Both the position numbers and the translations under genes were made by a program. A model generated the notes under the pieces. It made no database searches. It was not told where the DNA came from and saw only the letters and a list, made by a program, of their open reading frames with translations. Shown here one piece after another: positions 3,247-57,728 of a DNA stretch of 59,501 nt (positions within the stretch are counted from its first letter, which is position 1; each line of letters starts with the position of its first letter). The stretch lies in assembly GCA_964493485.1 (NCBI GenBank), contig CAZBMQ010000006.1, positions 12,081-71,581 of the forward strand. The letters are read 5' to 3'. Source of the DNA: an uncultured Candidatus Saccharibacteria bacterium. GTDB lineage: Bacteria; Patescibacteriota; Minisyncoccia; Minisyncoccales; JANBVM01.

Positions 3247-4224
3247 ATGACAAAATTCGATTACCATAAGATTTGTTTAGATTTGCTTTCTGGTCTTGAT
3301 CAAAGGCAGAAAGAAATAATTTCTCGAAGATTTGGTTTAGGAAGAGATAAAAGAGAAACATTAGAATCAATTGGGAAAGATTTTGGAATTTGCAGAGAAA
3401 GGGTGCGCCAAATAGAAGCTGCAAGTTTAAACAAGATAAAGCCAAAGACGCAAGACCATAAAAAGGTCTTTAATTATTTCTTAAATCATCTAAAAAAGTT
3501 TGGGGGAGTGAGGAAGGAAGAAGTCTTATTAAAAGAACTTGGAGAGGATAACGCAAGAAACGAGGTGTATTTTTTATTAAATTTGAGAGAGCCTTTTAAA
3601 AGAATTAATGAAAACAATGATTTTTACTCTGTTTGGATAATAGGTGAGGATTCATATAATTTAGCAAAGGAAGTGGTTAATTCTCTTGCTTTGCAATTCG
3701 AAAATATTAAAAAACCGCTTCCTTTAGAGGAGCTTAATTCTCCAGCTTCTTTAGAGAAAAGAGCTTTGGAATCTTATCTTGAAGCCTCAAAAAAGATTGA
3801 TAAAAACCAAGACAATCTCTATGGACTTTCTCATTGGCCTGAGATTAATCCCAAAGGGATAAAAGATAAAGCTTATTTGGTTTTTAAGAAGATCGGCAAA
3901 CCTCTTCATTTTCATGAGGTGGCAAAATTGATTGAAAATAGTCATGTACAGACTGTTCATAATGAACTTATAAAAGATAACAGGTTTGTTTTAGTTGGGA
4001 GAGGAATATATGCCTTGGCTGAGTGGGGTTATTATCCAGGACAGGTGAGAGACGTAATACTTAAGATACTGCAAGAATCAGAAGAACCTTTAACAAAGGA
4101 AGAGATTTTAGAAAAGGTATTAAAACAAAGATTGGTGAAAAAGAACACTGTATTATTAAATTTAAGCAATAAACAATACTTTTTAAGAGATTCTCAAGGT
4201 AGATATAGAATAAAAGAAGCTTAA
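3247..4224 (+). CDS. Sigma70 region-4 HTH fused to winged-helix (HARE-HTH-like) domains
   Basis: N-term RRFGL..RETLESIGKDFGICRERVRQIE (sigma r4); C-term KDKAYLVFKKIGKPLHFHEVA..TVHNELIKDNRFVLVGRGIYAL; no sigma regions 2-3. Confidence 0.8.
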   Translation: MTKFDYHKICLDLLSGLDQRQKEIISRRFGLGRDKRETLESIGKDFGICRERVRQIEAASLNKIKPKTQDHKKVFNYFLNHLKKFGGVRKEEVLLKELGEDNARNEVYFLLNLREPFKRINENNDFYSVWIIGEDSYNLAKEVVNSLALQFENIKKPLPLEELNSPASLEKRALESYLEASKKIDKNQDNLYGLSHWPEINPKGIKDKAYLVFKKIGKPLHFHEVAKLIENSHVQTVHNELIKDNRFVLVGRGIYALAEWGYYPGQVRDVILKILQESEEPLTKEEILEKVLKQRLVKKNTVLLNLSNKQYFLRDSQGRYRIKEA

Positions 4225-4226
4225 AA

Positions 4227-5603
4227 ATGTTTTCTATATTCTCTGAGATTTGGGATATTTATAAGACAGCAGGCGGTTTAATTATTAAACCCCTCTGGTT
4301 GATTATTAAAAACTGGTGGTGGTTGTTTTTCCCTTTTTTGATTAAAAACCGCTTTTTGTTTTTCTGGAAATGGTGGAGGTTTGAGGCTTTTTTGAAAAAT
4401 GTATTCAGACCTGTTTTGTTGGAGATAAAAATACCCAAGGATATTGTAAAACCAATTAGGGCAATGGAGGATGTGATGACTAGCTTGCATAGTATTATTT
4501 ATCATCCTCCTGACTGGTGGGAAGAGTGGATTGAGGGTCAATTCCAGACCTCTTTAGGTCTTGAGATTGCTTCAATTGAAGGTAAAATACATTTTTATAT
4601 CAGAATTCATGAAGCATACCGCGATGCAGTAGAAGCTGCTATTTATTCCCAATATCCTGAGGTGGAGATTGTTGAGGTTGATGATTATACAAAGCTGGTT
4701 CCCCAAGATATTCCAAACAAAGAATGGGAAATGTGGGGCACGGATTACAGGTTCTTAAAAAACAAAATAGAAGAGAATGCACTTCCCATTCTTACATATA
4801 AGAAATTTGAGACAGGTCAGGAAGATGTGGAGGAAAAAAAGGTAGATCCAATAGCAGAGCTTGTAGAGGCATTAGGCAGAATGGGTCCTGGAGAGCATTT
4901 TTGGATACAGATTGCAGCAACACCTGTAAGTGAGCAAGAAGATAGTGTGAAAACTGTTGGTTTTAACTGGATAGAAGAAGGCAAGAAATTAAGAGATAAA
5001 TTGGCTAAAAGACCTGTGGAAGAGAAAAAGCCATACAGACCAATTATATTAGATGCTATTGATTTTCTAATTACAGGCAAGGTTCCAGAAGAACCAGAGA
5101 AACCTGAAAAAGAAAAATTTTTCCTTCCTCCTGAAATGAAGCTTACTCCAGGAGAAAGAGAAATAGTGGCTGCCATTGAAGAAAAGATTTCAAAGCCAGG
5201 TTTTTACACAAATATTCGTTTTATTTATTTAGGAAAAAGAAAGAATTTTGTGAAAGGAAAATTAAGGCTTGGTTTTACATTTTTTGGAAGTTTTTATACT
5301 CACAATCTTAATGCTCTTATTCCATACGGTGATACAATAACCAAAATTCACAGATCATGGTTTTTACCAATTAATCTCTTCCGCGCCAGGAGATTATATT
5401 TAAGAAAAAGGAAGCTTTTTAGAAATTATGTAAGCAGGGTGCATTCTTATTTCCCCAGACCTCCAAAAAATGTTAAATTTATTCTAAATACTGAAGAATT
5501 GGCATCTATTTTTCATTTCCCATCTTGGAGAATAGCTCCTGTACCTGGTGTTTCTTGGATTGAAGCCAAGAAAAAACCACCCCCAGAGCTACCTGAGCAA
5601 TAA
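4227..5603 (+). CDS. Membrane-anchored hypothetical protein, partner of the downstream ATPase
   Basis: 458-aa ORF; N-terminal Trp-rich hydrophobic segment; AIYSQYPEVEI and ELASIFHFP motifs; 3 nt from the next gene. Confidence 0.65.
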   Translation: MFSIFSEIWDIYKTAGGLIIKPLWLIIKNWWWLFFPFLIKNRFLFFWKWWRFEAFLKNVFRPVLLEIKIPKDIVKPIRAMEDVMTSLHSIIYHPPDWWEEWIEGQFQTSLGLEIASIEGKIHFYIRIHEAYRDAVEAAIYSQYPEVEIVEVDDYTKLVPQDIPNKEWEMWGTDYRFLKNKIEENALPILTYKKFETGQEDVEEKKVDPIAELVEALGRMGPGEHFWIQIAATPVSEQEDSVKTVGFNWIEEGKKLRDKLAKRPVEEKKPYRPIILDAIDFLITGKVPEEPEKPEKEKFFLPPEMKLTPGEREIVAAIEEKISKPGFYTNIRFIYLGKRKNFVKGKLRLGFTFFGSFYTHNLNALIPYGDTITKIHRSWFLPINLFRARRLYLRKRKLFRNYVSRVHSYFPRPPKNVKFILNTEELASIFHFPSWRIAPVPGVSWIEAKKKPPPELPEQ

Positions 5604-10063: not shown

Positions 10064-10064
10064 T

Positions 10065-10466
10065 GTCCTAGCAGGCCCGTAAGCCGAATTCTGTTTTAGG
10101 TGATCATTTATCTTGGCTTTAAGTTGCCTTAAAGCTCATGCGAACTACTTTTTCCTTCAACAAGCCTTGGCTAGTAGCACCAGTACAGGTACACATTGAG
10201 ATTACCTCAGCTTGTCAAAGGTTTGTTCTTGCACCCGATAAGGATTTAGCCGTTTCACCCCCGAAGTTACCTTCGGGACTTATCCAGGGAAAACCTGGAT
10301 ACTTTGAACCTTTCGGTTCAAAGCGTCTCTGCTCGCACCTCTAGCCTTTAAGCCGAGGGGTGTTACCCCCTATCTTTTTAACCCTTGTAAGAATCCAAGG
10401 AGTGGGTGTTCGGACTTTCCTCCCCCTCGAACCCTTCGAGAAGGCGATCACTCGGCCTACTAGGAC
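10065..10466 (-). ncRNA. rnpB: RNase P RNA (about 402 nt)
   Basis: Minus strand has GAGGAAAGTCCG (CR-I) and ACAGAATTCGGCTTAC (CR-V); P1 is GTCCTAGTAGGC/GCCTGCTAGGAC; three hairpins in the P12-P14 region. Confidence 0.95.
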
Positions 10467-12208: not shown

Positions 12209-14080
12209 ATGAAAAATATCAGGAATTTTATAATCTTCAGCCATATCGACCACGGAAAATCTACCTTAGCGGATAGATTTTTAGAATTAACAAACACTAT
12301 TCCTAAAGAAAAGATGCGTTCTCAGTTTTTGGATATGATGGATTTAGAAAGAGAAAAAGGAATTACTATAAAAATGCAACCTTGCCGGATGATATACCAT
12401 CTTAAAGTTCGAAATTCTAACCCTGGAATTTTAGATAAATCTGAGATCCAAAACTTGAAACAATTTACTGATTCAGATTTGGGATTATCAAGTTCAGAAT
12501 TTATTCTGAATTTGATAGATACTCCAGGCCATGTAGATTTTAATTATGAGGTTTCAAGAAGCTTAGCTGCAGTAGAAGGAGGAATCTTATTAGTAGATGC
12601 CACAAAAGGAGTGCAGGCTCAGACTCTGGCTAATTTAGATTTAGCTGAGAAAGAAAAATTGGTAATAATACCAGCTGTGAATAAAATTGATTTACCACAC
12701 GCTAGAATTGAAGAAACAAAAGCTGAGATAGCAGAGCTGTTAAAGGTTTCAAAAGATGAGATTTTTGCAATTTCAGCAAAGAACGGAACAAATGTACAAA
12801 GTCTTCTGGAGGAAGTAATAAGAAAGATTCCCCCTCCTAAAGGAGATGATAACAAACCCTTAAGAGCTTTGGTTTTCGACTCAAAATACGATGCTTTTAA
12901 AGGAGTAATTATATATGTAAGGCTGTTTGATGGAAGAGTAAGGGCTGCAGACATGATTTATTTAATGCAAGCTGGCATTGAAACAAAGATAAAAGAGGTG
13001 GGATATTTTGCTCCTACCCTGAACCAATGTCAGGAGCTAAAGGCAGGAGAAATAGGATATATAGCTACAGGTATTAAAGAGCCTTCAAAGATAAGGGTAG
13101 GAGAAACAATTACATTTACTAGAACAAAGGACATGGTTAAACCTCTCTCTGGCTACAAGACTCCAAAACCAATGGTTTTTGCTTCAATTTATCCTGAGAA
13201 TCCTGATGATTTTGATCTTTTGAAAGATGCTTTAAATAAACTAAAACTTAATGACGCTTCTTTGATATTTGAAAGAGAAACAAAAGAATTCTTAGGTAGA
13301 GGTTTCAAATGTGGTTTTTTAGGTTCTTTGCACGCTGAGATAGTTTGTGAAAGACTGAAAAGAGAATTTGGGTTAAATTTAATAATCTCCACCCCATCTG
13401 TAATTTATAAGGTAATTGATAAAAAAGATAGAGAAGACTTAATTTTTTCTGCTTCTGACTGGCCAGATATGAGCTATATCAAAGAGGTAAGAGAACCTTG
13501 GGTCAGATTAGAGATTATAACCCCAGTTGATTATTTGGGTGGAGTATTAGATCTTTTGAAACAGCAGGAAGCAAAACATATTGAAGATAAATACTTAACC
13601 CAAGAAAGATTGTTATTGGTTTATGAGGCTCCTTTAAGAAAGATAATTGTTGGTTTTTTTGACAAGCTTAAAGGAATAAGCCAGGGATTTGCATCAATGA
13701 ATTATGAGTTTTTAGGATACAGAACAGGTGATTTAGTGAAGCTTGATATTTTAATTGCAGGCAGAAAAGAAGATGCTTTTTCAAAAATTGTAGACAGAAA
13801 AGAAGCGTTTAAAGAAGGAAAGAAAATTGTTACAAAACTTAAAGAGATATTACCAGCTCAACTTTTTTCAGTACCAATTCAAGCTGCAATTTCCGGGAAG
13901 ATTATAGCAAGAGAGACAATAAAGGCAAGAAGAAGAGATGTAACAGCTCCTCTTTATGGAGGAGATGTGACAAGAAAAATGAAGTTATTAGAGAGACAGA
14001 AAAGAGGCAAGAAAAAGCTGAAAGAAAAAGGAAGGGTTGTTATTCCTTCCAAGGTATTTTTGGAAATGTTTAAAAGTTGA
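12209..14080 (+). CDS. lepA: Elongation factor 4 (LepA) with an insertion of about 25-30 aa in the G domain
   Basis: SHIDHGKSTLADR, NLIDTPGHVDF, NKID, GFLGSLH and GGDVTRKMKLLERQK. Confidence 0.97.
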   Translation: MKNIRNFIIFSHIDHGKSTLADRFLELTNTIPKEKMRSQFLDMMDLEREKGITIKMQPCRMIYHLKVRNSNPGILDKSEIQNLKQFTDSDLGLSSSEFILNLIDTPGHVDFNYEVSRSLAAVEGGILLVDATKGVQAQTLANLDLAEKEKLVIIPAVNKIDLPHARIEETKAEIAELLKVSKDEIFAISAKNGTNVQSLLEEVIRKIPPPKGDDNKPLRALVFDSKYDAFKGVIIYVRLFDGRVRAADMIYLMQAGIETKIKEVGYFAPTLNQCQELKAGEIGYIATGIKEPSKIRVGETITFTRTKDMVKPLSGYKTPKPMVFASIYPENPDDFDLLKDALNKLKLNDASLIFERETKEFLGRGFKCGFLGSLHAEIVCERLKREFGLNLIISTPSVIYKVIDKKDREDLIFSASDWPDMSYIKEVREPWVRLEIITPVDYLGGVLDLLKQQEAKHIEDKYLTQERLLLVYEAPLRKIIVGFFDKLKGISQGFASMNYEFLGYRTGDLVKLDILIAGRKEDAFSKIVDRKEAFKEGKKIVTKLKEILPAQLFSVPIQAAISGKIIARETIKARRRDVTAPLYGGDVTRKMKLLERQKRGKKKLKEKGRVVIPSKVFLEMFKS

Positions 14081-14888: not shown

Positions 14889-15963
14889 ATGGAGAAAACA
14901 GAAGATATTTTTGAAAAGAAAGAAGAATTGAAAAGAAAACTCCTCAATCTTGAGGACTGTCTTTGACATTGAAAAAAAGAAGGAAAGGGTCAAGGAGTTA
15001 GAAAAAAAGATGCAGAATCCTGGATTTTGGCAGAACAAAGAAAAGGCGGTTGCTTTTTCTCGGGAGTTTAATTATTTAAAGGAACAAATAGAGAATATTG
15101 AAAAGTTAAAAAAGAGAATAGAGAACATAAAGGGTCAAAAGGAAATTAATGAATTAGAGAAAGAAATAAGAAAAAGAGAGATAGAGATATTTTTTGCTGG
15201 TAAATATGATAATGGAGATGCCATTTTATCGATTCATGCAGGAGCTGGGGGTCAAGATGCTCAGGACTGGGCAACTATGTTGTTGAGAATGTATGAGAGA
15301 TATTGTCAGAAAAAAGGCTTTGAGACCAATATTTTACATCAGTCGTTCGGAGAAGGAGGGGGTCCTGAAGGAAGAATCGGAACAAAATCTGTAACTTTAG
15401 AGATTAAAGGCTCATTTGCTTTTGGTTTTTTGAAAAAAGAAAACGGGGTTCATAGATTAGTCAGAATCTCTCCTTTTTCGCCCAAAAAGCTGCGTCACAC
15501 CTCATTCGCTTTGGTAGAGGTAATGCCGAAGATTCAGGATTTATCCCAAGAAGACATTGAGGTAAATCCAGAAGATTTAAAGATTGAATTTTTTAGAGCT
15601 TCGGGGCCTGGAGGTCAATATGTTAATAAAAGAGAAACAGCTGTAAGAATAACACATATACCTACAGGGATTGCAGCTTCTTGTCAGTCAGAGAGGTCCC
15701 AAGCTCAAAATAGAAAAAAGGCAATGGAATTGCTGTATTCTAGGCTTTACAGCTTTTACCAAAAGGAACAGAAAAAAGAGATTTCAAAGATAAAAGGAAA
15801 AAAGGTATCAGCCAGCTGGGGAAATCAAATAAGAAGTTATGTATTACATCCTTATAAGCTGGTGAAAGACCTGAGAACAGGAGTTGAAGAGGGAGATATC
15901 GAAAAGGTGTTAGATGGAGAAATAGATAAATTTATTGAAGCTGAAATTAGACATAATGATTAA
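14889..15963 (+). CDS. prfB: Peptide chain release factor 2 with programmed +1 frameshift (about 357 aa)
   Basis: 25-codon first ORF ending CTT TGA C (14961-14967); the +1 frame carries SPF (RISPFS) and GGQ motifs. Confidence 0.96.
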
Positions 15964-39487: not shown

Positions 39488-40132
39488 ATGTTGTCTCTTT
39501 CTGCAAAAATTCGGAAGGAACTAGGGAGAGAAGTAGAAAAACTCAGAAAGGAAGGTCTTATTCCCGCTGTTTTGTATGGTCCTGGAATTAAGAATTTAAA
39601 TTTGGTATTAGATTCTAAAGAATTTGAAAAGGCGTACAAAGAAGCAGGAGAAAGCTCTTTGATTTCTTTAGAGGTTGAAGGCAAAAAAGATAAATTTCTG
39701 GTTTTGATTCATGATATCCAATTCGATCCTTTAACAGACAAACCTATTCATGTTGATTTATATCAGCCTCACCTTAAAGAGGAGGTAGAGGTGACGGTTC
39801 CTATAATTCTTGAAGGTGAGTCACCAGCCGTTAAGAATTTAGGAGGGACTTTAGTAAAGAATATCTCAGAGATTGAAATTAAAGGACTGCCTCAGGACCT
39901 TCCAAAAGAAATTAGAGTAGATATTACAGCATTAAAGACTTTTGATGATATTCTTTTTGTCAAAGATTTGCAGGTTCCAAAAGGAGTAAAAGTATTGCGT
40001 AAACCAGATGAGATTCTTATTTCAGTTTCTCCTCCTGAGAAGGAAGAAGAGAGACCAGAAGAGGAGGCAGTGGAAGAGAAAGTTTCTGAAGAAAAGCCAG
40101 AGGACTCTGAAGAGAAGGGAAAAGAAGAATAG
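39488..40132 (+). CDS. rplY: 50S ribosomal protein bL25 (long CTC form)
   Basis: LRKEGLIPAVLYG, DIQFDPL..KPIHVD, acidic tail. Confidence 0.95.
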   Translation: MLSLSAKIRKELGREVEKLRKEGLIPAVLYGPGIKNLNLVLDSKEFEKAYKEAGESSLISLEVEGKKDKFLVLIHDIQFDPLTDKPIHVDLYQPHLKEEVEVTVPIILEGESPAVKNLGGTLVKNISEIEIKGLPQDLPKEIRVDITALKTFDDILFVKDLQVPKGVKVLRKPDEILISVSPPEKEEERPEEEAVEEKVSEEKPEDSEEKGKEE

Positions 40133-42862: not shown

Positions 42863-43612
42863 ATGATAGAAGAAGAAAACAAGTTTGATATTGATATAGA
42901 AGAGATGGCAAAAGCCGGGCTTCACTTTGGACATAAAACCTCAAAAGCCCATCCTAAAATGGAGCCTTATTTGTATGGGGTAAGAAATGGAATTCATATT
43001 ATTGATTTAGAAAAAACAAAAGAAAAGCTGGAAGAGGCTTTAGGGTTTATAAAAGAGCTAATCTCTCAGGGCAAGATATTATTGATTGTAGGAACCCAAG
43101 TTCATACGAAAGATTTAGTAAAAGAATTTGCTTCTGAATGTGGCCTTCCTTATATTAACGAAAGATGGTTGGGTGGCACCTTTACTAATTTTGAGGTTAT
43201 TAAAAAAAGAATTAATTATTTTAAAGATTTACAAGAGAAAAAGATTAAAGGGGAACTGGAAAAATATACAAAAAAAGAAAGAAGTAAGATAGAAGCAGAG
43301 TTAGAGGAGTTTGAAAGAAAGTTTGGAGGAATTAAAGATTTAGAGAGATTGCCTGATGCTATTTTTGTTTTAGATATGGAAAAAGATAGTTTAGCAGTGA
43401 AGGAAGCTCGAGAAAGAGGAGTGAAGATAGTTAGTATTTCAGACACAAATACAGATCCAACACTTGCTGATTATCCTATTCCTGCCAATGATAATGCGAT
43501 GAGTTCAGTGAAATATATATTAGACAAAGTAAAAGAGGTAATATTAAAAACAAAACAAGAAACAAAAAGCGAGATACAAGAAACAAAAGACAGAGATCAA
43601 GAGAAAAATTAA
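42863..43612 (+). CDS. rpsB: 30S ribosomal protein uS2
   Basis: AGLHFGH, HIIDL, RWLGGTFTNF, LPDAIFV, DTNTDP, IPANDNA. Confidence 0.97.
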   Translation: MIEEENKFDIDIEEMAKAGLHFGHKTSKAHPKMEPYLYGVRNGIHIIDLEKTKEKLEEALGFIKELISQGKILLIVGTQVHTKDLVKEFASECGLPYINERWLGGTFTNFEVIKKRINYFKDLQEKKIKGELEKYTKKERSKIEAELEEFERKFGGIKDLERLPDAIFVLDMEKDSLAVKEARERGVKIVSISDTNTDPTLADYPIPANDNAMSSVKYILDKVKEVILKTKQETKSEIQETKDRDQEKN

Positions 43613-44582: not shown

Positions 44583-44976
44583 ATAAAGGTATTAGAAAGC
44601 ACTCTTAAAGTAAATATGGTTTTTTAGAGTTGTCCCGACTATTCTTTTTATTCGAGGATTTGATCCTGGTCCAGGATGAACGCTGGCGGCGTGGATAAGG
44701 CATGCAAGTCGAACGGACCTTATGCTTTGCATAAGGTTAGTGGCGAACGGGTTAGTAACACGTGGGTAACATACCGCCGAGACAGGGACAACCCAGAGAA
44801 ATCTGGGCTAATCCCTGATGGCCTGGTAATTGATTATTCTTTTACCAGTAAAGGGTTTCGCAAGAAACCGCTCGGCGAATGGCCTGCGGCCTATCAGCTT
44901 GTTGGTAGGGTAATGGCCTACCAAGGCTATGACGGGTAGGCGGAGTGAGAGCTTGTCCGCCAACAATGGCACTGAG

Positions 44977-45008
<32 letters not shown>

Positions 45009-45525
45009 CGAGAATATTGGTCAATGGGGGAAACCCTGAACCAGCGACGCCGCGTGCAGGAAGAAGGCCTTCGGGTTGTAAACTGCTTTTCTCCGGGAGC
45101 AAGGGAGTAATCCCTGAGAGTACCGGAGGAATAAGGGGATGCAAATTCTGTGCCAGCAGCCGCGGTAAGACAGAATCCCCAAGCGTTATCCGGATTTATT
45201 GGGCGTAAAGGGTCCGTAGGCGGTCCGTCAAGTTTTCTGTTAAATCTCTAGGGCTTAACCTTAGAGCCGCAGAAAAGACTGACGGACTAGAGGGCGTTAG
45301 AGGTTGATGGAACGCTCGGTGTAGGGGTGAAATCCGTTGATATCGAGCGGAACACCGAAAGCGAAGGCAGTCAACTGGGGCGACCCTGACGCTGAGGGAC
45401 GAAAGCGTGGGGAGCAAAAAGGATTAGATACCCTTGTAGTCCACGCCCTAAACGATGGACACTGGCTATCTGTAGTGTCGACCCTACAGGTGGCGAAGCT
45501 AACGCGTTAAGTGTCCCGCCTGGGA

Positions 45526-45557
<32 letters not shown>

Positions 45558-46029
45558 AGACGGGGGCTCACACAAGCGGTGGATCATGTGGCTTAATTCG
45601 ATAACAAACGAGGAACCTTACCAGGGCTTGACAGGCTAGTGAAATCCGCCGAAAGGCGGACTACCCACAAGGACACTAGCCCAGGTGCTGCATGGTTGTC
45701 GTCAGCAGGTGTCTTGAGATGCTCCCTTAAATGGGGAAACCTGCGTAACCCTTGCCCTATGTTTCACGTGTCATAGGGGACTGCCGTAGATAATACGGAG
45801 GAAGGTGAGGATGACGTCAAATCAGCATGGCCCTTTGATGTCCTGGGCTGCACACATGATACAATGGTCAGGACAATGGGTTGCTAAGGAGAAATCCGGA
45901 GCTAATCCCATCAAACCTGATCTCAGTTCGGATTGAGGTCTGCAACCCGACCTCATGAAGCCGGAATCGCTAGTAATCGCCAATCAGCCATGTGGCGATG
46001 AATATGTCCCTGAGCCTTGTACTCACCGC

Positions 46030-46892
46030 CCTGAAATAAAGTGCCTGGTAGGTAAATCAGCTAATAGGTGACTCGTTTATTAAAAATTTGTTTAAACGAG
46101 AAATCCTATTTTATAGCCAAAAATAGCATCCTATTTTCTGTAAAGAGATAGGGGAGAGCTTGAGGCGAAAGGCAGCCCTCCAACCTTAATGGGTTGAAGA
46201 GATAAGACGACTTCTGTTGGGCGGTCAGGAGGAAGTCTCTTTATCTTTAAGCTCTATTTGAGGGATGCCTGAAAGAGTTGATTTACTGACCCAGGGAGAT
46301 CCTGATAAGGAAAGAAGCTGGTACCTGTCAGGAAGTCAGCGAGGTAATAGTACCTTATTTATCTTGACGCTATGCATGTCCAAAGATAAGATAAGGGAAG
46401 GACCTCACCTATCTATGCTTACTGAAGATTATGTTATTGGATTAACAGATGGAGAAGGAAGCTTTACAGTGTTTCAGAGAAAAATTGGAAAGTACCGTAA
46501 GATAGAGTGTCATTTTTATGTGAAGATGAGAAAAGAAGAAAAAGAATTATTAGAGAGGTTGAAAAAATTTTTTGGATGTGGTCGAGTCTCTTTTCAGAAA
46601 GATAAACGAAGAAATCATAGTGATTGTTATCGCTATGAAGTGGGGAACATAAAAGAATTGAGACAAAAAATAATTCCAGTTTTTAAAGGGAGATTGTTAA
46701 GCAAGAAGAGAAAGAAGGATTTTGAGATATTTTGTAAGATTTTGAAGCTTGTGGAAAGTAAGGCACATTTAAGCGAGGAAGGATGGGAAAGAATTAAAAA
46801 GTTGAAAGGAAAGATGCATAGATAGGGCTCCGCCCGGTACGGGAAATCCGTACGCCGGGAAGGAACGAGAAAGCTAGTTTCAAGCACTCAAT
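46030..46892 (+). mobile_element. Group II (IIC-like) intron in 16S at E. coli about 1402/1403, 863 nt; boundary could shift by 2 nt
   Basis: D1 base CCTGG/CCAGG, EBS1 loop GGGCGGT complementary to the junction ACCGCCC, J2/3 AGC, D3 GAGGT/ACCTC, 11-bp D4, CGC-triad D5, end CTCAAT. Confidence 0.85.
46415..46825 (+). CDS. Single-motif LAGLIDADG homing endonuclease (136 aa) in intron domain IV
   Basis: YVIGLTDGEGSF motif, beta-saddle F.V.MR..E..LL..L..FFGCG.V, Y.V..IKEL...IIP.F; the upstream 50 codons of the track ORF are ribozyme sequence. Confidence 0.92.
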   Translation: MLTEDYVIGLTDGEGSFTVFQRKIGKYRKIECHFYVKMRKEEKELLERLKKFFGCGRVSFQKDKRRNHSDCYRYEVGNIKELRQKIIPVFKGRLLSKKRKKDFEIFCKILKLVESKAHLSEEGWERIKKLKGKMHR

Positions 46893-47167
46893 CCGTCACG
46901 CCAAGCGAGCTGGGAATAGCTGAAGTCCCGCCGATTAAGGTGGGCCTAAGCTAGGTTCAGTGAGAGGGGCGAAGTCGTAACAAGGCACGGGTAGCGGAAG
47001 CTGTCCGTGGATCACCACATTTTATTTTTTGATTGGTCGACTAGGATTGAAATCTGGAATTCGGATTTTAATTCTAGGGGTGTTGATCGAGGAGCCTTTA
47101 AGTCTCGATCGTTGAAATAAGTCGGGACAACTCTAAGAAACCATAAAAAGACTTATATAAAATAATT

Positions 47168-47198
47168 AAAAGCCAGTTTGAATGTACAGGCTTTTTTT
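47168..47198 (+). terminator. Possible terminator after the 16S precursor
   Basis: AAAAGCC...GGCTTTT with a 7-T run; 14-nt loop. Confidence 0.5.
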
Positions 47199-47204
47199 AT
47201 TGAC

Positions 47205-47233
47205 TTGCAAAAATAAAAAAATTGACATAAAAT
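47205..47233 (+). promoter_or_regulatory. Promoter of the YbaK-MTase-tRNA unit
   Basis: TTGCAA, 17 nt, TAAAAT, ending 8 nt before ATG 47242. Confidence 0.55.
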
Positions 47234-47241
47234 TTATTTAT

Positions 47242-47748
47242 ATGCCGGTTCCAAAGAAAGTGATTAATTTTTTAGAAAAGAATAGGGCAAGATATGAAAT
47301 AGTTGAACACCGAACAGTTTACACTGCTTTTGATAAAGTGAAGACATTAAAAGTAAAACCAAATATTGTTGGAAAAACATTGGTTTTAAAAGGAGATAAA
47401 GATTTAATATTTGTGTTGATTCCAGCAAACAAGAATTTAGATAAGAATAAATTTAAAAAAATAGTTAATATTTGGAGAAAAAAACAGGGAAAGAAGAGTG
47501 TGAAAAAGATAGAATTTGTATCAGAAAGAGTAATTAAGAATAAAATAAAAGGAGTGAAATTAGGTGCTATTCCTCCTTTTGGAAGCCTTTTTGGGTATCC
47601 TACTTTTGTAAATAAATCATTGTTGAGTCAGAGAAAGATTATTCTGAATTCAGGCATTCCTGATTTTTCAGTTAGAATTACAACAGCTTCTTTTAAAAAA
47701 ATAATCCCAGATATGATATCTGCAAATTTTGTGAAGGCGAAAAAGTAA
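47242..47748 (+). CDS. YbaK/EbsC-family aminoacyl-tRNA deacylase (168 aa)
   Basis: HRTVYTA, VGKTLV (conserved Lys), GAIPPFG; start moved to ATG 47242. Confidence 0.85.
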   Translation: MPVPKKVINFLEKNRARYEIVEHRTVYTAFDKVKTLKVKPNIVGKTLVLKGDKDLIFVLIPANKNLDKNKFKKIVNIWRKKQGKKSVKKIEFVSERVIKNKIKGVKLGAIPPFGSLFGYPTFVNKSLLSQRKIILNSGIPDFSVRITTASFKKIIPDMISANFVKAKK

Positions 47749-47764
47749 TTTAAATGATTTTAAG

Positions 47765-48325
47765 ATGTGGTATCAAACTTTCTCAATATTTTATGAAAAA
47801 GCTGCAGAAAGAATGTGCCAAGAATGTAAAGAGTTTATTAAAAAGGGGAGCAGAATACTTGATTTAGGTTGTGGTTCTGGAATAGTAGGTAATACATTTC
47901 AGAATTTTTTTAAGGCAGAAGTTATGGGAGTGGATATTACAGATAGAAGAGTACTTCCTATTCCATTTAAAACTATTGATGGAAAATCTCTTCCTTTTCA
48001 GGATAATAATTTTGATGCAGTATTAATTTCTTATGTGTTACACCACAGCCAGGATCCAATGCTTCTTTTAAAAGAAGCTAAAAGAGTGACGAGGGATAAG
48101 ATTTTAGTGTACGAAGATTTGCCGGATGGGATTTTCTCAAGATTATTTTGTGCTCTTCATGGATTTTTATTTGATAAATTATTTCAGAATAAAAATAGAA
48201 CAAGCTTTAAAACAGAAGAAGAATGGAAAAAGGTATTTGCAGATTTAGACTTAAAAATGGTTTTTCAAAAAAAGGTTTCTTTTTTAAACCCAGTTAGAAA
48301 AAAATTGTTTGTATTACAGAAATAG
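47765..48325 (+). CDS. Class I SAM-dependent methyltransferase
   Basis: ILDLGCGSG, GVDI, LPFQDNNFDAV, VLHH; the last base of TAG is G1 of tRNA-Ile. Confidence 0.88.
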   Translation: MWYQTFSIFYEKAAERMCQECKEFIKKGSRILDLGCGSGIVGNTFQNFFKAEVMGVDITDRRVLPIPFKTIDGKSLPFQDNNFDAVLISYVLHHSQDPMLLLKEAKRVTRDKILVYEDLPDGIFSRLFCALHGFLFDKLFQNKNRTSFKTEEEWKKVFADLDLKMVFQKKVSFLNPVRKKLFVLQK

Positions 48326-48399
48326 GGCATGTAGTTCAATGGTAGAACACTTCTCTGATAAAGAAGAGGTCGTAGGTTCGATTCCTACCATGCCCACCA
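48325..48399 (+). tRNA. tRNA-Ile (GAT), CCA encoded
   Basis: GGGCATG/CATGCCC acceptor; CTTCT-CTGATAA-AGAAG anticodon arm; A73 then CCA. Confidence 0.95.
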
Positions 48400-48431
48400 A
48401 CATTGCTTTGCAATATAGAATTTAACACACT

Positions 48432-48505
48432 GGGCCCGTAGCTCAGTTGGCTAGAGCATCGCATTTGCAATGCGGAGGTCAGGAGTTCGAGTCTCCTCGG
48501 GTCCA
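48432..48505 (+). tRNA. tRNA-Ala (TGC)
   Basis: G3-U70 identity pair; TCGCA-TTTGCAA-TGCGG anticodon arm. Confidence 0.95.
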
Positions 48506-48657
48506 CACTTATTTTCTTTCTTTAAGTTTTCCACAAAAAGTTTTTTTGGCTCTCTTAACTATGTTATAATATAAAAATATAGTTTGTTATGGCGCATTTG
48601 ATATGCGACATAACTGTTAATTCTTAAAAGGTCGATAAATAACCTTTTACAAAAAAT

Positions 48658-49335
48658 ATGGTGAAAGACTGGTCAGTAATTACTACTGAGGCTTTACAAG
48701 AAACTTGGAGAGCATTTTTATTCTTTTTACCTAAACTGATTGGAGCAATAATAGTATTTGTTATTGGTTGGCTTATTTCTTCTGCTTTAGGCAGATTAGT
48801 GGCTGAGGCTCTGAAGCTTTTAAAGTTTAATCAGGTATTTGAAAGAAGCAATTGGAAAGAAGCTCTTGAAAAAGCAGATTTGAAGGTAAATCCTTCTGAC
48901 TTTGTTGGAGGAATTTGTAAATGGATTCTGGTAATAGTATTCTTGCTTGCTTCAGTAGACATTTTAGGGTTTGAAGAGTTTGCTGACATTTTAAGCAGAG
49001 TTATAAGTTGGCTTCCAAACCTGATAGTTGCTATAGCTATTTTCATAGTGGCTATAATTCTTACTGATATTTTAGAAAAAATCATTAAGGCTAGTGTGGA
49101 AAAGATGGGGATAGAACATGCAGGATTTCTTGGTACTTTGGTAAGATGGTCAGTTTACTTTTTTGCTCTAGTAGCTATACTTATTCAGTTAGAAGTAGCG
49201 CCGAGTATAATTAATACGTTGTTTACAGGAATAGTTGGAATGTTTAGCTTAGCTTTTGGTTTAGCTTTTGGGCTTGGGGGAAAGGATGCTGCAGCTAAGG
49301 TAATTGAAGATTTCAAGAGAAAAATTTCTTCATAA
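48658..49335 (+). CDS. MscS-associated TM-helix repeat membrane protein
   Basis: Two repeats of (F/W)LP(K/N)LI.A..(V/I)F; GLAFGLGGKD C-terminus; no cytoplasmic cage domain. Confidence 0.75.
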   Translation: MVKDWSVITTEALQETWRAFLFFLPKLIGAIIVFVIGWLISSALGRLVAEALKLLKFNQVFERSNWKEALEKADLKVNPSDFVGGICKWILVIVFLLASVDILGFEEFADILSRVISWLPNLIVAIAIFIVAIILTDILEKIIKASVEKMGIEHAGFLGTLVRWSVYFFALVAILIQLEVAPSIINTLFTGIVGMFSLAFGLAFGLGGKDAAAKVIEDFKRKISS

Positions 49336-49419
49336 ATTTTTTTCATCTGAAATTAAAACAGTAACAGAGTAACAGCTTGTATAAAATTACAAGAATGAGT
49401 TTTATTAGTTGAAGGAGAT

Positions 49420-49471
49420 AAACCCACATCACACATCATAGATATCAGTTTGAAGCGTGGTGTGGGTTTTT
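49420..49471 (+). terminator. Long hairpin with T-run just upstream of the 23S promoter
   Basis: 13-bp AAACCCACATCAC / GTGGTGTGGGTTT stem followed by TT; large loop. Confidence 0.5.
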
Positions 49472-49474
49472 AGC

Positions 49475-49502
49475 TTGACAAATTATTTTGATTTGCTAAA
49501 AT
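49475..49502 (+). promoter_or_regulatory. Promoter upstream of 23S-5S
   Basis: TTGACA, 16 nt, TGn-TAAAAT. Confidence 0.7.
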
Positions 49503-49512
49503 AAGGATATAC

Positions 49513-49569
49513 ATGAAAATGATGAGTATGATGATAAATTATTTAATAAAGAAAACAAGAAGCGGTTAG
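49513..49569 (+). CDS. Putative Met-rich leader peptide MKMMSMMINYLIKKTRSG
   Basis: 5 ATG among the first 7 codons; stop codon overlaps the antiterminator 5' arm; not in the ORF track (18 aa). Confidence 0.55.
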   Translation: MKMMSMMINYLIKKTRSG

Positions 49570-49623
49570 TGTTTGGAATTTTTATTAATTACTAGAGAGA
49601 CCGCTTCTTGGGAGCGGTTTTTT
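49556..49623 (+). promoter_or_regulatory. Mutually exclusive antiterminator/terminator hairpins
   Basis: CAAGAAGCGGT (49556-66) pairs perfectly with ACCGCTTCTTG (49600-10); alternatively AGACCGCTTC/GGAGCGGTTT plus T-run forms a terminator. Confidence 0.7.
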
Positions 49624-49707
49624 GATTAAAGAATGGGAAAGAACTCTACAACTAAATAAAGACAGTAAAAGGCATTATTCGCTAAATTTGTTTTATAGGA
49701 TTTTGGA

Positions 49708-52654
<2,947 letters not shown>

Positions 52655-52690
52655 CCAGAATTCTGTAAAACAAAATAATAAAAGGGCGCT

Positions 52691-52804
52691 TTAGTGGCAA
52701 CTATACTGGCATTGTCCCACCTGTTCCCATCTCGAACACAGAAGTGAAATATGCCAAGGCCGATGATAGTGGGTTTCCCGCGAAAGTAGGTAGTTGCCGC
52801 TAAA
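52691..52804 (+). rRNA. rrf: 5S rRNA
   Basis: GTCCCACCTG..CCCAT..CGAAC.CAGAAGTGAAA, GCCGATG.TAGT, AAGTAGG; helix I extended about 10 bp by flanks, then a T-run. Confidence 0.95.
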
Positions 52805-57580: not shown

Positions 57581-57728
57581 AAAAATTCTAAATTCTAAAT
57601 CTAGAGCCCTAAATAATTTCAAAATTCAAATGGTCAAAACAATCATCCAAATCTTTAAAACTGTTTCGAATTCTGATTTTTGTCATTTGAATTTATTTAG
57701 AATTTAGATATTAGGATTTAGAATTTTT
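57581..57728. repeat. About 150-nt nested palindrome of heptamer units (AAATTCT-type)
   Basis: AAAAATTCTAAATTCTAA / TTAGGATTTAGAATTTTT outer arms; ATTCAAATGGTCAAAA / TTTTTGTCATTTGAAT inner arms. Confidence 0.8.

Follow-up and report, generated by a model that had tools for sequence, protein, structure and literature searches.

Elongation factor 4 (LepA, EF4) is encoded in a stretch of 59,501 nucleotides from an uncultured Candidatus Saccharibacteria bacterium (contig CAZBMQ010000006.1; this 59.5-kb stretch, with a G+C content of 34.8%, is hereafter called the window), and its GTPase (G) domain carries an additional segment of 27-28 residues encoded in frame. With little more than even confidence, we regard this segment as a decayed array of heptanucleotides, similar to the short tandemly repeated repetitive (STRR) sequences of cyanobacteria, which would have arisen and grown in place and been tolerated as a surface loop. 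Comparison with other Patescibacteria supports the assignment of the insert to an AAATTCN-type family of heptamer repeats that appears to create in-frame protein insertions.

The original prediction had described an insert of approximately 25-30 residues at this position, and comparison with a solved structure bears this out; the peptide quoted at that time left out the Phe-Ile before LNLIDTPGH. Residues 2-69 and 97-200 of the window protein align to residues 4-71 and 72-175 of Aquifex LepA (PDB 2ywe), and residues 70-96 are a pure insertion between residues 71 and 72 of the latter. The insert thus sits where strands beta2 and beta3 of the G domain turn (the tip of the interswitch hairpin), after switch I and before the DTPGH motif. 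Depending on where its borders are drawn, the insert occupies 84-99 nt, and the reading frame is kept (Table 1). The stretch from GITIK to IDTPGH is 47 residues long in the window, which is the longest of all; of the 120 best homologues, 109 have only 15 or 19 residues there, so that the alignment of orthologues proposed earlier as a check shows the insert to be absent from these 109 proteins. Structure prediction, which had also been proposed, gave a low-confidence loop in AlphaFold2 (alignment of 27 sequences, mean predicted local distance difference test (pLDDT) score of 73), with pLDDT below 50 for residues 68-93 and strands at residues 59-64 and 97-104; the insert is thus predicted to be a disordered surface loop. 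Its only arginine is encoded by CGA, which accounts for 2.6% of Arg codons in the window and is dictated here by the AAATTCG unit, and the native leucine in the ILNLI codons that follow is encoded by CTG (4.9% of Leu codons). These rare codons would fit an origin at the DNA level rather than selection for a codon-optimised peptide.

The window DNA is also present in hydrothermal-vent metagenomes, and the insert sequence is identical in contigs of independent vent metagenomes from 2018, 2023, and 2025 (four runs), which indicates that it is real; an assembly artefact was dismissed for this reason. No insertion or deletion variants of the insert were found in the contigs of the four runs, although the absence of length variants is only weakly shown in this way, because contigs drop rare variants. 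An intein or intron was also dismissed, considering that the segment has only 27 residues, splicing motifs are absent, and the frame is kept.

The evidence that carries the proposed origin comes from the same site in other organisms. None of the eight nearest LepA proteins (75-80% identity) has a comparable insert, and one of them (P0005) has an unrelated insert of 13 residues. However, several more distant Patescibacteria LepA proteins carry inserts at exactly this site, some of which are clean arrays, as in L002 (GAAATTC, five copies, encoding EIRNSKFEIRNS), L084 (AAATTCA, 4.9 copies, 100% match), and L001 (AAATTCC, 4.6 copies, followed by units of the inverse type), with 4.6-5.0 copies and 92-100% match in the three loci. 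Other lineages have other units, such as CAAAAAT (four copies, L087) and the 8-nt unit TGTTGGAA (L086), and a second site in the same protein, a loop of domain II, contains period-7 arrays in L001, L086, L210, and L211. Clean arrays have 4.3-5.0 copies overall. The inserts at the LepA site range from 11 to 32 residues (33-96 nt) across lineages, and their peptides differ widely; such likeness as they have arises because translation of a 7-nt unit passes through all three frames and yields a period of seven residues, and the peptide motif SDL[GE]..S[EK][FY] is common to LepA inserts only. The window insert can be aligned to several of them: its 3′ half to the inserts of L001 (3/500 shuffles score as high) and L003 (6/500), and its start to the L002 array (12/500). 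In an alignment with the variable regions masked, insert-bearing lineages are polyphyletic, which takes no fewer than five distinct gains or losses. P0001, P0104, P0082, P0085, and P0005 each have nearest relatives without inserts, and P0096, P0111, P0066, and P0051 form one group in which every member has an insert. Spare flanks from Patescibacteria were provided by a contig scan with LepA, with LepA identity of at most 59% among the matches listed.

The native codons at this site are themselves heptamer-periodic, with TATATTC TAAATTC TAACCCC TATATTC in relatives without inserts and ATTCTGA ATTTGAT for ILNLI, and they are partly self-complementary (ATTC.GAAT). Tandem Repeats Finder (TRF) calls even the native hairpin of L005 as period 7. 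Replication slippage could therefore expand units there.

The window insert consists of a degenerate, sense-oriented half of AAATTCN type followed by an antisense-type half (NGAATTT/TNRGAWT). Its autocorrelation is 0.39 at lag 7 (z 2.3) and unusually low at lag 3 (0.12, z -3.6). In a wrap-around gapped alignment to cyclic AAATTCN plus NGAATTT, the insert scores 48.5 compared with 30.6 +/- 6.0 for dinucleotide shuffles (4/300 reach 48.5), and its heptamer score lies in the top 0.67% of all 99-nt windows. The complementary arms named in the original prediction were recovered: an inner inverted repeat pairs completely, the arms at 12412-12425 and 12489-12502 are 79% complementary, and AACTTGA/TCAAGTT pairs at 7/7 positions. 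A small hairpin lies at the start of the insert and contains NSNP codons that agree with those of the native turn in relatives without inserts (AAT TCT AAC CCC in L211). Two other candidates for periodic DNA were rejected, namely a high heptamer score at 39535-39667, which is native coding sequence for ribosomal protein L25 with no insert, and the matches of a plain lag-7 scan of the window, which are mostly A-rich low-complexity DNA.

Both edges of the insert mirror the adjacent native sequence. LepA inserts of the AAATTC type end in 10-14 bases that are reverse-complementary to the native I-L-N-L codons immediately downstream, as seen in the window (CAAGTTCAGAAT and ATTCTGAATTTG, separated by TT), in L002 and L003 (12/12), and in L084 (10/10). 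Where the native arm has changed, the insert arm has changed with it (CTG/CAG versus TTG/CAA; AAC/GTT). Over 13 pairs and five AAATTC-type inserts, 87.7% of cells are paired and three pairs have changed on both sides, a value that 13 of 500 shuffles equal; the corresponding figure for seven LepA genes without such inserts is 25%, and palindromes with arms of at least 8 occur at 0.65% of control positions. At the 5′ edge, the native Arg-Met codons are mirrored in the window, L002 (CGCATGAT and ATCATGCG, separated by TT), and L084, with 87.5% of cells pairing in these three and one pair occurring in three Watson-Crick types (CG, GC, and UA). It is this inverted copy that gives the three proteins the odd peptide I-Y-H-x, and MIYH was found in none of the homologues without inserts. 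The Arg codon ends in C, T, or G (all synonymous), and this base pairs with the one that begins the codon following His (Ala, Met, or Leu), a covariation that is only suggestive with three sequences. Among the junction-helix pairs that are not Watson-Crick, most are G.U on the sense strand. With respect to RNA folding, the insert alone is ordinary (z -1.5; 17/200 shuffles fold equally well), the 123-nt segment from after Met61 through ILNL reaches z -2.85, and positions 12380-12520, which include both flanks, reach z -3.3 (0/200 shuffles) with z -1.1 on the antisense strand.

Heptamer arrays of the same kind were also found in other genes. A metagenome scan for (AAATTCN)4 detected at least 120 stretches, of which 80 loci were read. 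Among the matches listed, arrays in low-GC contigs are very often contained in long open frames, whose sense strand carries AAATTCN; 20 of 20 Pfam-verified enzyme genes have sense, in-frame arrays of (AAATTCN)4 or more; and pure or mostly AAATTCT arrays, which have TAA in one frame, are in none of the long open frames. The seventh base is C or G in 12 of the 20 arrays, which would leave both strands open, and all 12 are in the sense orientation. The verified carriers include MiaA, TrmD, phosphoglycerate kinase (PGK), class I aminoacyl-tRNA synthetases, MiaB-like and 6PGDH-like proteins, glycosyltransferases, methionine aminopeptidase, PriA, P-type ATPases, and others. PGK arrays are present in L096 and L001 and absent from other PGKs; in L001, whose genome also has two arrays in lepA, a perfect in-frame (AAATCTC) array of 4.9 copies (5558-5591, peptide ISNLKSQISNLK) is absent from four other PGKs. 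TrmD homologues (named matches in Patescibacteria and Moranbacteria) have 209-344 residues and contain heptamer-type peptides in two loops. The loop before EYPQYT[RK]P is of heptamer type in most of the 16 homologues aligned (KNSKLKIQNS, IRNSKFEIRNS; e.g., L093), whereas E. coli TrmD presumably has just a few residues before this position. As far as the alignment indicates, the TrmD loop looks like an old repeat-derived loop that has been retained.

Thus, what the original prediction called a mobile or expanding repeat family is upheld as a family, with in-frame AAATTCN repeats, clean arrays at the same LepA site, and at least 20 housekeeping genes, but not as a mobile one: no target-site duplication, fixed ends, or fixed length was found, and the units are lineage-specific. 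The lack of such signs of transposition makes an expanding repeat the better description.

In lepA and trmD, a second kind of repeat was observed. A GC-rich palindrome, TCCCGCyTTCGCCAAGGCTwCGGCGGGCAAGCAAAAyTC, is in frame in two genes of two organisms with 36 of 39 nt identical: in L084 at approximately 3650-3700 (lepA, domain II loop; peptide PAFAKATAGKQ) and in L212 (trmD, P0223; PAFAKASAGKQ). Its core of 24-26 nt has nine occurrences in viral contigs, several of them directly after TGA, and one between heptamer arrays (L217).

We consider it improbable that the insert was kept because it is useful, either as a loop that modulates EF4 on the ribosome or through junction hairpins in the mRNA that pause or regulate translation or stabilise the message, in which case the periodicity would be secondary. 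Such a role could account for the stronger fold of the sense RNA than of the antisense strand, for the G.U pairs on the sense strand and the compensatory changes, for a sequence that stayed constant in metagenomes from 2018 to 2025, and for the heptamer-type TrmD loop that most homologues retain. However, the closest relatives manage without the insert, the peptides vary widely among lineages, and the loop is predicted to be disordered. A search of RNA runs found none that contains the locus. The junction covariation is based on 3-5 sequences, with shuffles reaching the observed values in 13/500 and 110/500 cases, and inverted copying of each lineage's own flank yields the same pattern without selection.

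In the window itself, only one other heptamer element is present in 59.5 kb, an imperfect hairpin of approximately 150 nt that fills the spacer between the lysS stop (57573) and the serS start (57736). No canonical terminator was called at 57581-57728, and Rfam at the gathering threshold detected no family there or at the insert. Hairpins of the same heptamer architecture were found in eight metagenome loci (L088, L089, L114, L117, L142, L148, L159, and L167). The resemblance between insert and intergenic hairpin described in the original prediction is at chance level (24 versus 20.1 +/- 3.0; 61/500 shuffles reach 24), and the two belong to the same architectural class, yet are not demonstrably the same element. 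In addition, no other window-specific insertion of at least 16 residues was found in approximately 15 kb syntenic with L001, L085, and L208, except that PGK and a TrwB-like gene show short gaps, no longer than 20 residues, against single relatives. A separate repeat was noticed in ribosomal protein S2, whose C-terminal tail KTKQETKSEIQETKDRDQEKN (43553-43602) is encoded by a degenerate 7-nt/21-nt repeat (TRF: period 7, 4.9 copies; period 21, 2.3 copies).

Several observations weigh against expansion of a heptamer array in place. TRF called no period-7 array at the window insert, a native stretch of the L25 gene outscores it on the heptamer test, and the periodicity of the window insert is itself weak; the periodicity claimed earlier is only moderately above chance (4/300 shuffles, lag-7 z 2.3). 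The DNA-level origin of the array in place is something that we infer, and no two near-identical genomes were found that differ in having an AAATTC-type insert. The one recent event observed is the insertion in P0005: relative to P0003 (L208, 10208-10246, versus L209; 96.7% nucleotide identity), it is a clean in-frame insertion of 39 nt, AATGCGAAGCATTACAGCGAGCGAAGCGACCGGTTTGTA, at the same hairpin tip and with no clear target-site duplication. It is unrelated to the window insert and GC-richer, contains GCGAAGC twice, and has the look of an import, not of a local expansion; a distant LepA (L085) has the motif GAGCGAAGCGAC in its insert as well. Moreover, the GC-rich palindrome common to lepA and trmD of two organisms implies that dispersed elements similar to the Rickettsia palindromic elements (RPEs) exist in these genomes. 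Finally, junction palindromes are absent beside the arrays in 20 other genes (mean arm 3.3 versus 3.2 in controls), where array-flank pairing has p values mostly above 0.1. A two-sided palindrome is thus no general signature of array insertion, and a template-switch step may be special to the LepA site, or the hairpins may be selected.

Some of these points could be explained by an RPE-like mobile palindromic element, either similar to a miniature inverted-repeat transposable element (MITE) or spread by recombination after DNA uptake, with lepA as a preferred target and the lysS-serS hairpin as another copy. We consider this rather unlikely, though more probable than the other alternatives. 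The imported look of the P0005 insertion and the clear dispersal of the GC-rich palindrome, including viral contigs, agree with it, and so do the alignable 3′ half that the window insert shares with L001 and L003, although these LepA proteins are approximately 69% identical and closer relatives have no inserts, and the occurrence of the same heptamer unit at both LepA sites, in numerous genes, and in hairpins between genes. Nevertheless, insert length varies from 11 to 32 residues, termini are not fixed, and target-site duplications are lacking; units vary by lineage (AAATTCG, AAATTCA, AAATTCC, CAAAAAT, and the 8-nt unit of L086); the window holds no further copy, its sole other heptamer element being no more similar to the insert than expected by chance. 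In addition, the insert edges copy the local native sequence, and a pre-formed element would not carry such edges.

The weak periodicity, the ordinary fold of the insert alone, native coding DNA that equals it on the heptamer test, and the chance-level likeness to the intergenic hairpin might also suggest that a loop expanded in an ordinary, lineage-specific way in an AT-rich genome, with heptamers and palindromes appearing by chance. This is very improbable considering the clean arrays that other lineages have at this site, the significant alignment of the window insert to them, a 14-bp junction hairpin far above the background of control positions, and the use of the rare codon CGA.

If the insert is a heptamer array that grew in place, the following course of events can be proposed. 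Slippage would expand heptamer units at the hairpin tip, and fold-back or template-switch synthesis would copy the flanking native codons in inverted orientation, which is proposed to be why the insert edges mirror the adjacent sequence lineage by lineage. Only expansions without stop codons and with the frame kept would survive, and the array would be translated as a disordered surface loop tolerated by LepA. Point mutations would then erase the repeat until it looked as it does in the window. The mRNA hairpins, especially the one of 14 bp at the 3′ junction, would most likely be a by-product, although an effect on translation is possible.

Table 1. Coordinates of the LepA insert, its palindromes, the host gene, and the intergenic heptamer hairpin (positions in the window)
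Feature	Position	Strand	Characteristics or basis
In-frame segment K66-F98, peptide KVRNSNPGILDKSEIQNLKQFTDSDLGLSSSEF	12404..12502	+	directly 5′ of the codons for ILNLIDTPGH
Part without counterpart in solved LepA (residues 70-96)	12416-12496	+	alignment to Aquifex LepA (2ywe)
5′ junction palindrome: native Arg-Met codons (CGG ATG AT) and imperfect inverted copy (..CAT CTT) encoding I-Y-H-L	12385..12404	+	pairing across orthologues
Small hairpin GAAATTCTA-ACCC-TGGAATTTT	12411..12432	+	fold
Inner inverted repeat AAATCTGA ... TCAGATTT	12437..12480	+	8/8 complementary
3′ junction hairpin, 14 bp: insert end TATCAAGTTCAGAA paired with native I-L-N-L-I codons TTCTGAATTTGATA	12486..12517	+	fold, pairing across orthologues
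lepA (elongation factor 4), host gene of the insert	12209..14080	+	623 aa; open reading frame (ORF), Pfam, PDB matches
Imperfect hairpin of AAATTCT/AGAATTT heptamers, lysS-serS spacer	57581..57728		fold z -6.3 (+ strand), -4.6 (- strand)

The product of the host gene has the full LepA domain set in Pfam (PF00009, PF03144, PF14492, PF00679, and PF06421; GTP_EFTU, GTP_EFTU_D2, EFG_C, and LepA_C), membership is confirmed by matches to LepA/EF4 chains in PDB at E values of 1e-45 to 1e-52, and the G1 (HIDHGKST), G3 (DTPGH), and G4 (NKID) motifs are readable in the translation. The best named matches are EF4 proteins of Candidatus Nealsonbacteria and Patescibacteria, with a top identity of 76%, and the gene order murJ-lepA-divIC-prfB-ftsE-ftsX is common to the window and its relatives. 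In this cluster, prfB (release factor 2, 14890-15963) apparently relies on +1 programmed frameshifting of the classical type: ORF0 begins with the ATG at 14890 and reaches CTT TGA C at 14962-14968, with GAGGA just upstream, and the long ORF goes on in the +1 frame. The rRNA region (44648-52802) contains a 16S gene (44648-46067) and a 23S gene (49708-52655), between which lie three ORFs of approximately 186 residues (46265-48325), two tRNAs, and a fourth ORF of 225 residues (48658-49335); the 5S gene (52693-52802) is bracketed by a 27-nt inverted repeat. A class A RNase P RNA is encoded on the minus strand at 10064-10463 and has 400 nt versus a model of 367 positions.

Several known systems share some features with these arrays. 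STRRs are found in heterocystous cyanobacteria, where they are mostly intergenic, have units such as CCCCAGT, and comprise several unit types, which are often inverted and form long hairpins. They were reportedly defined as heptanucleotide repeats by Mazel et al. in 1990, and Vioque is said to have described one inside the RNase P RNA gene in 1997. Tandem heptamers, mixed and inverted unit types that form hairpins, and a functional gene that is not destroyed are common to STRRs and the arrays described here, and adjacent inverted unit types also occur here in long intergenic hairpins (the lysS-serS spacer and the eight metagenome loci). The differences lie in the hosts, which here are Patescibacteria (LepA and TrmD matches including Moranbacteria), in the location within in-frame protein loops, and in the units. 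With regard to the edges, quasipalindrome template switching and snap-back insertions at breaks (work of Ripley and of Lovett; Pol-theta end joining) produce inverted copies of adjacent sequence and turn imperfect palindromes into perfect ones. The insert edges look like products of template-switch mutagenesis, which is a mechanism and not a family, and the link to it is one that we infer. MITE traits were not observed, as the flanks are inverted rather than direct copies of native codons and no clear duplication is present at the P0005/P0003 insertion.

RPEs (Ogata et al. 2000, as summarised in PMC10969869) are described as elements that lie in frame within housekeeping genes and are tolerated. 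They have a length of approximately 100-150 bp and form defined families whose peptide is conserved and which have dozens of similar copies in each genome. In both systems, repeat-derived DNA is in frame in unrelated housekeeping genes, is translated as a tolerated surface segment, also occurs in intergenic regions, and has hairpin potential, and in-frame insertions at surface positions of unrelated housekeeping ORFs were indeed found here (the LepA hairpin tip, MiaA, TrmD, PGK, aminoacyl-tRNA synthetases, and PriA). However, the inserts at the LepA site have 33-96 nt, a tandem 7-nt body, lineage-specific units, and edges mirroring native sequence, and belong to another phylum; many dispersed similar copies with a conserved peptide were not found within the 59.5-kb window. 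The analogy with RPEs drawn in the original prediction therefore describes the outcome well, i.e., an in-frame, tolerated surface-loop insert, and does not extend to membership, since the family traits are missing from the window.

Heptameric simple sequence repeats are over-represented in bacteria (Mrazek 2007, cited in PMC4692102), and PMC4692102 mentions GGGAATC arrays of Xanthomonas and Nostoc as well as STRRs. The arrays described here resemble them in having 7-nt units, a dispersed distribution, and a preference for approximately four units (here 4.3-5.0 copies), but are AT-rich and on the sense strand in all verified ORF cases. As in phase-variable contingency loci, the tract is within a gene and its unit is no multiple of three, and the clean arrays of L002 and L084 could in principle switch frame by slippage; in contrast, the window tract is degenerate, has no length variants in four metagenomes, and resides in a core translation factor rather than a surface or restriction gene. 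No paper linking heptanucleotide repeats or RPEs with Patescibacteria or the candidate phyla radiation was found, and the occupation of protein loops by heptamers in Patescibacteria is so far undescribed, as far as the literature was searched.

These arrays provide a concrete DNA-level source for many lineage-specific loop insertions in proteins of the candidate phyla radiation, and the idea developed for RPEs, that repeats become protein segments, is thereby extended to another and very large group of bacteria, whose repeats are of a different kind. The natural series from perfect array to decayed loop at one site of a conserved protein allows the birth of protein segments and of 7-nt repeats to be studied, and the same series bears on whether junction hairpins reflect a repair mechanism or selection at the mRNA level. 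For annotation, NSKFEIRNS, NSKFQIP, FAKASAGKQ, and similar peptides of these genomes should be recognised as repeat translations. More speculatively, and with clearly less confidence than we place in the origin of the LepA insert, Patescibacteria, and perhaps other uncultivated bacteria, might possess an active and undescribed process at the DNA level that seeds hot spots within essential genes with short heptamer arrays and with small palindromes, leaves inverted flank copies at the LepA site through snap-back synthesis or the repair of hairpin-ended breaks, and continuously renews disordered loops in LepA, TrmD, MiaA, PGK, and aminoacyl-tRNA synthetases, comparable to RPEs yet mechanistically different. 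If true, this seeding process would be a repeat-driven route of protein-loop evolution.

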